From: Vicinamibacterales bacterium
Lineage (GTDB): Bacteria > Acidobacteriota > Vicinamibacteria > Vicinamibacterales > UBA2999
Direction of reading: 5' to 3'
NCBI GenBank assembly: GCA_050250645.1
Contig: JBFWOG010000018.1
Coordinates: forward strand, 138 to 64,137
DNA length: 64,000 bases
Both the position numbers and the translations under genes were made by a program. This document shows, piece by piece, positions 58,987 through 59,739 of this stretch. Each line of letters opens with the position of its first letter. Position 1 is the first letter of the stretch. A model generated the notes under the pieces. The model saw nothing but the letters and a program-made list of their open reading frames with translations. It was not told the origin of the DNA and did not search any database.

Positions 58987-59009
58987 GGGCGTCATTCTGC
59001 GGCCTGAAT

Positions 59010-59049
59010 GTTAGACCGACGTTACCTGCGCGTTACATCTAGGTTACAT
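59010..59049 (+). promoter_or_regulatory. Four GTTA(C) direct repeats at 11-bp period (OmpR/PhoB-family-type box)
   Basis: GTTAG 59010, GTTAC 59021, GTTAC 59032, GTTAC 59043; the last overlaps the -35 position of TATAAT 59065. Confidence 0.65.
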
Positions 59050-59077
59050 CCACGCCGCTGCTCCTATAATCGGCGCC

Positions 59078-59623
59078 ATGGCGTACATCCGCTACGCGGG
59101 CCGCGACGAGATCGACCCGGCCGACCGGGTCGACGACGACGACAACATCATCCGCATCCACGGGGTGCACGGCCGGACGCTGAGGCAGCACTACGACCTC
59201 TACGCGGAGCTGATGCGCGGCGCCGGTCCGCTCACGCGCGTGCAGCGGGAGATGATCGCCGTCTCGGTGTCGGTGGAGAACCGCTGTCACTATTGAATCG
59301 CGCACCACGGGGCGGGGCTCCGTCGAGCGCTCTCGGAGGCCGGGGTGGACCGCGAGGTCCGCGACCGGCTCGTCGCGGACCTGAAGACCGACTACCGGGC
59401 GGCCGGCCTCGCGCCGGCGGACCGCGCGATGCTCGACTACGCGGCGTGCCTGACGCGGACGCCGTGGGCGGTGACCGCGGCCACGGTGGACGCCCTGCGG
59501 GCGGCCGGCTTCGACGACCGGGGCATCCACGACATCTGCGCCATCACGGCGTACTACGCCTTCGTCAACCGCATCGCGGATGGGCTGGGCGTCGAGCTGG
59601 AGTCACCCGGCCGGGCCGGGTAG
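59078..59623 (+). CDS. AhpD/CMD-family peroxidase-related enzyme, probable selenoprotein (CxxU, UGA at 59294-59296)
   Basis: ORFs 59078-59296 and 59345-59623 are in one frame. Read-through gives QREMIAVSVSVENRCHY-U-IAHHGAGL..ML.YA..LTRTP..V....V..LR.AGF.D..I.D...I.AYYAFVNRIADGLG. SECIS-like hairpin downstream. Confidence 0.85.
59300..59330 (+). promoter_or_regulatory. Candidate bacterial SECIS stem-loop
   Basis: Upper stem ACGGGGC/GCUCCGU (59307-13 / 59317-23) with a GGG loop 17 nt after UGA; lower stem GCGC/GCGC (59300-03 / 59327-30). Confidence 0.65.
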
Positions 59624-59739
59624 CGCGCCCGCGCGGCCGCCGGGCCGCCGTTGCGCCCGCCTCCAGCCCCCCACTACTATAGGTGTCCGTTGTTGGACCG
59701 CGCCCTCCCGTGGCCCGGCCATTCCCCGAAGGACGGCTC

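Follow-up and report, generated by a model that had tools for sequence, protein, structure and literature searches.

The stretch of DNA analysed here, called the window, comprises 64,000 nucleotides (nt) from a Vicinamibacterales bacterium (assembly GCA_050250645.1, contig JBFWOG010000018.1, positions 138 to 64,137) and is part of contig C18 of a 5.2-Mb, 100% complete genome. On its plus strand, at 59078-59623, lies one reading frame that runs from an ATG at 59078 to a TAG at 59621-59623 and has a TGA at 59294-59296 as its sole interruption. Reading through this codon gives a 181-aa product carrying the segment VENRCHYUIAHHGAGLRR, where C70-H-Y-U73 is followed by H77 and U stands for selenocysteine (Sec). 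A first-pass annotation, made by a model from the letters alone, had described two short open reading frames (ORFs) in one frame with only the TGA between them, a 181-aa read-through product and a TGA at the second position of a CxxC motif (NRCHYUIAHHG), all of which we recover. On the evidence set out below, the locus is almost certainly one intact AhpD-like selenoprotein gene whose UGA is decoded as selenocysteine.

ORF calling with translation table 11 breaks the frame into 59078-59296 (72 aa) and 59345-59623 (92 aa), the second half having GTG 59345 as its sole possible start. As a consequence, the conserved HHGAGLRR segment is lost. The downstream half of the gene has a G+C content at third codon positions (GC3) of 0.98, and the GC content of both sequence and genome is 72%. 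Measured against 1582 long ORFs from this genome, the codons that had been flagged as atypical proved rare indeed, namely TGT (7.6% of Cys), TAT (5.3% of Tyr), CGT (3.2% of Arg) and CGA (2.1% of Arg), all of them at most 11 codons from the UGA.

Family, fold and active site of the read-through protein

The read-through protein matches the Pfam domain CMD at 8.7e-14 and the NCBIfam model TIGR01926 ('peroxidase-related enzyme') with 115.7 bits over residues 22-172, against a curated cutoff of 81.8, which agrees with the AhpD/CMD family named in the first-pass annotation. Two other NCBIfam entries have the CMD superfamily and a CxxU motif in common with it, the alkylhydroperoxidase-related (seleno)protein AhpD_rel_CFYUT (NF041238) and the YciW-related (seleno)protein (NF053654). 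Scores of 54.8 for the former (cutoff 175) and 15.7 for the latter (cutoff 310) indicate that both are families different from the one studied here. Assignment as a PcaC-type carboxymuconolactone decarboxylase was rejected: no pca genes lie nearby, the redox motif CxxU/C-H is invariant, and only the Pfam CMD domain is shared.

At the sequence level the protein matches PDB entry 3c1l with E = 1.8e-25 and Deinococcus radiodurans AhpD (6k40) with E = 7e-17. Entry 3c1l (Mlr4105) is one of four Cys-containing TIGR01926 proteins from structural genomics, of which 3c1l and 2pfx are 33-37% and 2oyo and 2prr 28-29% identical to the protein described here. Their CxxC, like that of 6k40, aligns to the CxxU of the window protein; the four thus have Cys where the protein here has Sec, and none of them has an assigned substrate. 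An AlphaFold model computed from a 44-sequence alignment (predicted local distance difference test score, pLDDT, 96.7; predicted template modelling score, pTM, 0.91) is all-alpha with eight helices and places C70-x-x-U73 at the N-terminus of helix 71-87. Superposition of the model on 3c1l gives a root-mean-square deviation of 1.5 Å and a template modelling (TM) score of 0.78, and on 6k40 a TM score of 0.84 with E = 2e-9 (Foldseek). Mycobacterium tuberculosis AhpD (1lw1) is a distant structural match only (E = 0.02, TM 0.54).

Residues E58, C70, Y72, H77, L81, N164 and R165 are invariant across 129 family sequences, and column 73 of the same set holds U or a TGA rendered as W in 100 and Cys in 22. 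The spacing Glu-(x11)-Cys-x-x-Cys/Sec-x-x-x-His, which we take to be that of the M. tuberculosis AhpD active site, is matched by E58/C70/U73/H77. The attacking nucleophile of that enzyme is presumably the second motif position, Cys133, the counterpart of which is Sec73 here. All four codons lie on the plus strand of the window. The Glu58 codon (59249-59251), invariant in 129/129 and located 15 residues before Sec, falls at the position expected for the AhpD proton relay, a role that the residue would have by analogy with AhpD. The TGT codon of Cys70 (59285-59287), likewise invariant in 129/129, encodes the first CxxU residue, a putative resolving Cys, and the TGA of Sec73 occupies the second CxxU position. 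The invariant His77, at Sec+4, is the putative catalytic His; its CAC codon (59306-59308, alignment columns 16-18) opens the stem of the hairpin described below with its last two bases.

Conservation of the UGA and of a SECIS-type hairpin

To follow the UGA across genomes, orthologous loci were collected by pattern search with one genome per species, and the best 80 were retained. The sole search pattern that crosses the Sec site was back-translated with Cys, and the TGA result is therefore no selection artefact. TGA was found at the Sec column in all 80 loci, which come from about ten phyla or groups: Acidobacteriota, Gemmatimonadota (including Candidatus Palauibacter), Desulfobacterales (including the Olavius Delta 1 symbiont), Zixibacteria, Chloroflexota, Calditrichota, Planctomycetota, Marinimicrobia, KSB1 and Actinomycetota. 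The orthologues align to the read-through protein from residue 1 to about residue 178, and the closest one, from an Acidobacteriota metagenome-assembled genome (MAG), shares 80% identity with it.

Protein databases present the same family in a different form. Among the best 120 database homologues (P0002-P0121), about 70 are C-terminal fragments of 101-122 aa that begin directly after the TGA, 19 are full-length entries with W at the Sec site, the TGA having been called as Trp, and 21 are true CxxC forms at the same column; a few carry R, S or G. The proposal of the first-pass annotation to look for alternation of Cys and TGA was borne out, with TGA at the 80 loci and true Cys homologues at the same column.

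A survey of 121 Vicinamibacterales genomes detected homologues in 39 of them; of the 48 matches, 45 contain a TGA in frame. Orthologues in four genomes of this survey were reported with two in-frame TGAs (L112 at G001:C91:12836-13378, and those of G085, G048 and G097), and the additional TGA may be either a second Sec codon or a terminal stop that falls inside the match. As for the window itself, the first-pass annotation had advised a check of the site for TGC or TGT. Contigs assembled from two landfill samples (X1, depth 12.5; X2, depth 92.9) showed no differences over 59000-59700, and the TGA was identical in both.

Ten nt past the UGA begins a candidate bacterial Sec insertion sequence (SECIS) element. 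Its apical hairpin, at 59307-59323 on the plus strand, was defined by folding and comparative pairing and consists of a 5' arm ACGGGG (59307-59312), a loop CGGGG (59313-59317) and a 3' arm CUCCGU (59318-59323). An extra pair C59313-G59317 is possible in this sequence, and with it the stem of the minimum free energy (MFE) fold lengthens to 7 bp (ACGGGGC/GCUCCGU) around a GGG loop. The first-pass annotation had described a 7-bp stem with a loop starting in G, ten nt after the UGA, supported by a lower 4-bp stem. The upper part stands, whereas the lower GCGC/GCGC stem (59300-59303 with 59327-59330, plus strand) appears in the MFE fold of this sequence only; 37% of orthologue cells pair there, no better than in slid controls, and by this measure the lower stem does not belong to the conserved element.

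An ungapped alignment of 81 sequences, covering TAYTGA plus 42 nt, gave the consensus CAY CAC GGR GCG GGN CUC CGU after the UGA, that is, ACGGRG, a loop CGGGN and CUCCGU. For the 79 distinct orthologues, 92.2% of cells in the 6-bp helix are paired, a share that falls to 30-56% if the 3' side of the helix is displaced by 1-3 columns. Compensatory changes are seen at pair 20/30, which is C-G instead of G-C in six sequences, and at pair 21/29, which alternates between A-U (48) and G-U (28).

Synonymous codon choice within the hairpin departs strongly from that in the remainder of the same genes. Arg at +9 is encoded by CGT in 69 of 76 cases (91%; background 8%), Leu at +8 by CTC in 71 of 81 (background 39%) and His at +3 by CAT in 79% (background 19%). 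Gly at +5 is GGA or GGG in 66/66, and GGC, which makes up 44% of the background, is at 0% there. These codon biases argue that selection on synonymous sites preserves the SECIS.

Two side observations concern the hairpin region of individual orthologues. Divergent members such as L089 and L095 appear to carry the hairpin in a shifted register, as judged by eye from the alignment. The locus of Candidatus Palauibacter ramosifaciens (L066:3250-3285) contains, directly 3' of the SECIS hairpin, an 18-nt tandem duplication (GTCGTCTGCTCGCCACGA, with a copy that begins GTCGTCTGCTCGCCAC), and this orthologue is 6 codons longer than the one in the sister species.

Selenocysteine decoding in the genome and in the order

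The statement of the first-pass annotation that the organism decodes Sec agrees with the gene content of the genome, in which selA (518 bits), selB (314 bits), selD (357.7 bits) and a tRNA-Sec with anticodon UCA (66.2 bits) were all found over their cutoffs. SelD (L001, C8:188703-189626, minus strand) itself has an in-frame TGA, in the segment MVSCAGUASK. A second SelD ORF (L002, C7, about 138.0-141.0 kb, plus strand) encodes a fusion of NADH dehydrogenase and SelD of about 800 aa with the motif CVGCGGK; this fusion type was already noted in the Global Ocean Sampling (GOS) paper (PMC2398784).

Further selenoprotein genes were sought by a scan of the genome for in-frame TGAs guided by GC3 and by the G+C content at second codon positions (GC2), combined with inspection of motifs. 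The scan returned FdhA with RTUHAPSV (C43:17566, plus strand), a peroxiredoxin with FTAGU (C14:1818, minus), an AhpC-TSA/DsbD_N fusion with WUPYC (C7:189352, minus), a DUF3179 protein with WUPLC (C7:131556, plus), a PDO-type thioredoxin of TIGR02187 with TPTUPHCP (C25:46418, plus) and a PrdB-like protein with VUPFC (C1:96291, plus), the last of which scores 111 bits with TIGR04483, below the cutoff of that model. The DUF3179 gene is followed, about 8 kb downstream, by the SelD fusion ORF mentioned above. Hairpins of 6-7 bp begin 10-14 nt past the UGA of these further genes, mostly with a 5-nt loop that contains G. The AhpD-like gene shares its hairpin geometry with at least eight other selenoprotein genes of this genome, and together with SelD and the AhpD-like protein the genome holds at least nine selenoproteins. 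A looser search of the whole genome for TGA close to Cys yielded 331 matches, most of them off-frame, and was dropped for the stricter one; the scan candidates C3 and C4 were discarded as off-frame.

The guided scan also returned the most useful by-product of the analysis, a gene of the family DUF411 (PF04214; L123, C45:9182-9667, minus strand), with a TGA at C45:9527-9529 in the motif SPT-U-GCC. Six Vicinamibacterales genomes (L123-L128) share the TGA at this column, and about 12 nt downstream there is a hairpin, GCCUGGR...YCCGGGC, that is conserved too. Across the order, 16 of 62 DUF411 matches have an in-frame TGA and the remainder have none, the TGA alternating with Cys. The protein has no NCBIfam match. 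PF04214 is absent from the table of a 2026 review (PMC13188914), and no selenoprotein paper naming DUF411 was found in the literature searched. The SPT-U-GCC protein may therefore be an uncatalogued Sec form.

RpoB identity to Vicinamibacterales or Acidobacteriota MAGs is 84-90%. A selA gene over cutoff was present in 101 of the 121 Vicinamibacterales genomes surveyed, and judged by this marker the order is broadly Sec-decoding. Acidobacteria had been recorded with three selenoprotein families in 2006 (PMC1794560). The first-pass annotation, which called Sec poorly documented for this lineage, therefore overstated the case. For Vicinamibacterales specifically, no paper on Sec use was found in the literature searched.

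The family has a longer record. A 2005 study of the Sargasso Sea presented the AhpD-like protein (COG2128, CxxU) as a new selenoprotein family, with 27 sequences and SECIS elements in which guanosines of the apical loop are conserved (PMC1088965). The GOS study of 2008 counted 299 Sec and 902 Cys sequences of 'AhpD-like 1', which ranked fourth in abundance among its selenoprotein families (PMC2398784). A review of 2026 lists it as 'AhpD-like protein | TIGR01926 | CxxU' (PMC13188914), and BSepDB has an AhpD-like family page (PMC13326102). The selenoproteome of the Olavius Delta 1 symbiont, from which one of the TGA-bearing orthologues (L044) derives, was published in 2007 (PMC1976440). The first-pass annotation was thus right that AhpD-like CxxU selenoproteins had already been reported. 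Judged by NCBIfam model and motif, there is essentially no difference between the protein here and this family: the same model is matched over cutoff, Sec takes the second position of CxxU, and Cys homologues are widespread. The copy here comes from a terrestrial (landfill) Vicinamibacterales MAG, whereas the published family is from marine plankton or from Deltaproteobacteria and Clostridia.

The gene is accordingly a further member of a selenoprotein family catalogued since 2005, and its description corrects an annotation instead of adding a new discovery; knowledge of Sec decoding or of the AhpD-like family is unchanged. The practical value lies in the annotation, as gene callers split or truncate the gene or translate the Sec site as Trp. 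Such mis-annotation hides a predicted antioxidant selenoenzyme of about one third of Vicinamibacterales genomes and of many Gemmatimonadota. With selA in 101/121 genomes, a widespread acidobacterial order of soil and landfill would depend on selenium for redox defence, which bears on how the trace-element ecology of these bacteria, most of them uncultured, is interpreted.

Decoding model, alternative readings and local context

The proposed mechanism is bacterial SelB/SECIS recoding of the standard kind. A ribosome nearing the UGA would meet the 6-7 bp hairpin 10 nt downstream, which is encoded within the codons of the catalytic-helix peptide H-H-G-A-G-L-R and would present its G-rich apical loop. 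SelB, with GTP and Sec-tRNA(Sec, UCA) charged via SelA and the selenoprotein SelD, is predicted to bind this loop and to bring in Sec while competing with release factor 2. The resulting product would be a 181-residue AhpD-like thiol/selenol oxidoreductase of TIGR01926/COG2128 with an active site E58...C70-x-x-U73-x-x-x-H77. By analogy with M. tuberculosis AhpD, Sec73 would act as the attacking nucleophile and reduce a peroxide or an oxidised partner, e.g., a peroxiredoxin; Cys70 would resolve the selenenylsulfide, and H77 together with E58 would form the proton relay.

The protein has the all-alpha CMD/AhpD fold and the Glu...CxxC-xxx-His spacing in common with AhpD (Rv2429, 1lw1; D. radiodurans, 6k40), but carries Sec in place of the nucleophilic Cys and is encoded without an adjacent ahpC. 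The ahpC-ahpD linkage of AhpD sensu stricto, the AhpC-reducing enzyme of the M. tuberculosis type, was looked for and not found, there being no AhpC/Prx neighbour. By this comparison the protein is probably AhpD-like in its working and not an orthologue of AhpD proper.

Several observations weigh against a SECIS-directed selenoprotein gene at this locus. No ahpC, AhpC/Prx or other redox partner gene is adjacent to it, and the sequencing runs that bear the locus are DNA metagenomes only. The stability of the fold is nothing unusual when compared with shuffles (z = 0.02); this value is uninformative because the gene is 72% GC, and the case for the hairpin is therefore comparative. RNAalifold found no pairs and no consensus structure in the 81-sequence alignment, and Rfam gave no match in the window at the gathering threshold. 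Covariation is modest, owing to the near invariance of the element. Finally, the stem is retained by two of the four Cys homologues that served as a control (L104, L105, L107 and L108), and the stem alone is consequently no marker of Sec use.

These four controls differ from one another in detail. L104, which has the identical HHGAGLRR peptide, uses the codons GGC...AGG and has no hairpin, and the hairpin of L105 is broken. The stems kept by L107:1501-2043 (P0005) and L108:1501-2040 (P0016) read CGGAG...CUCCG and ACGGAG...CUCCGU, with the loops UCUGG and CGAAU, both of which lack GGG. Both stems resemble fossil SECIS elements that would have remained after Sec was replaced by Cys, and as such would be no evidence against the element. 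A quick tree with many weak forks places the Cys forms in small clades that branch within the Sec forms, the clade of P0005 and P0016 being sister to a Sec-bearing Gemmatimonadales sequence with weak support; the direction of the Sec/Cys changes is tentative. The neighbours of L108 include an AhpC-TSA/redoxin gene.

A nonsense pseudogene would account for the locus if a CxxC AhpD-like gene had lately been inactivated by a change of TGC or TGT to TGA, leaving a 72-aa fragment. The split of the frame under table 11 and the existence of Cys-containing homologues fit this explanation, yet the same TGA recurs in 80/80 orthologues from about ten phyla and in 45/48 matches within the order, and a check of the alignment showed that the orthologue TGAs are not misaligned. 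The half downstream of the TGA is fully conserved at the protein level, including the invariant H77, N164 and R165, and retains its GC3 of 0.98; the SECIS is kept by synonymous-site selection and the Sec machinery is complete. Recent inactivation is thus very improbable. An error of sequencing or assembly that conceals a true TGC or TGT has even less to recommend it. The window derives from a metagenome-assembled genome, and Logan contigs drop rare variants, so that a minority allele could exist; against this, contigs of two different samples agree without a difference over 59000-59700, and genomes obtained independently, in many studies, likewise have this TGA.

The UGA might also be read through, or be reassigned, as Trp, Gly or Cys. 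Insertion of Cys or Trp by near-cognate tRNAs at UGA occurs under selenium limitation, and the 19 database homologues deposited with W would conform to a Trp reading. Many genes of this 72% GC genome, however, end in TGA as their normal stop. The site is the second, redox-active residue of a CxxC motif, where TGA alternates with Cys only, and Trp would abolish the redox motif. With tRNA-Sec(UCA), SelA, SelB, SelD and a SECIS-type hairpin all present, insertion of a standard amino acid is about as improbable as a pseudogene, and decoding of the UGA as selenocysteine in an intact gene is the reading we retain.

A broader synthesis of these results is one to which we give somewhat less than even weight. 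According to it, Sec would be ancestral and near-obligatory in this TIGR01926 sub-clade of about ten phyla, and the SECIS would be hard-wired in the HHGAGLR codons, so that conservation of the peptide would be partly RNA-driven. The Cys forms would be reversions with a fossil hairpin and a degraded loop. Vicinamibacterales, an abundant soil order, would be almost universally Sec-decoding, with a selenoproteome of at least nine members that includes the uncatalogued DUF411 Sec form.

As to its surroundings, the gene is a solitary one, and no intrinsic terminator was found. The upstream neighbour is a divergent gene of 364 aa with no Pfam match, with a DAO-type FAD oxidoreductase farther out, and a 1080-aa BNR/sortilin-like gene lies downstream. 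There is no synteny between the window and the locus of the closest orthologue (L024), and hence no conserved operon context that would point to a partner. Directly upstream of the coding sequence, at 59043-59070 on the plus strand, is a putative sigma-70-like promoter consisting of GTTACA, a 16-nt spacer and TATAAT. It has 10 of 12 consensus matches, and one such site was found compared to 0.1 expected in shuffles. The end of the -10 box is 7 nt from the ATG of the selenoprotein gene, a position that suggests a leaderless or near-leaderless mRNA without a Shine-Dalgarno sequence.

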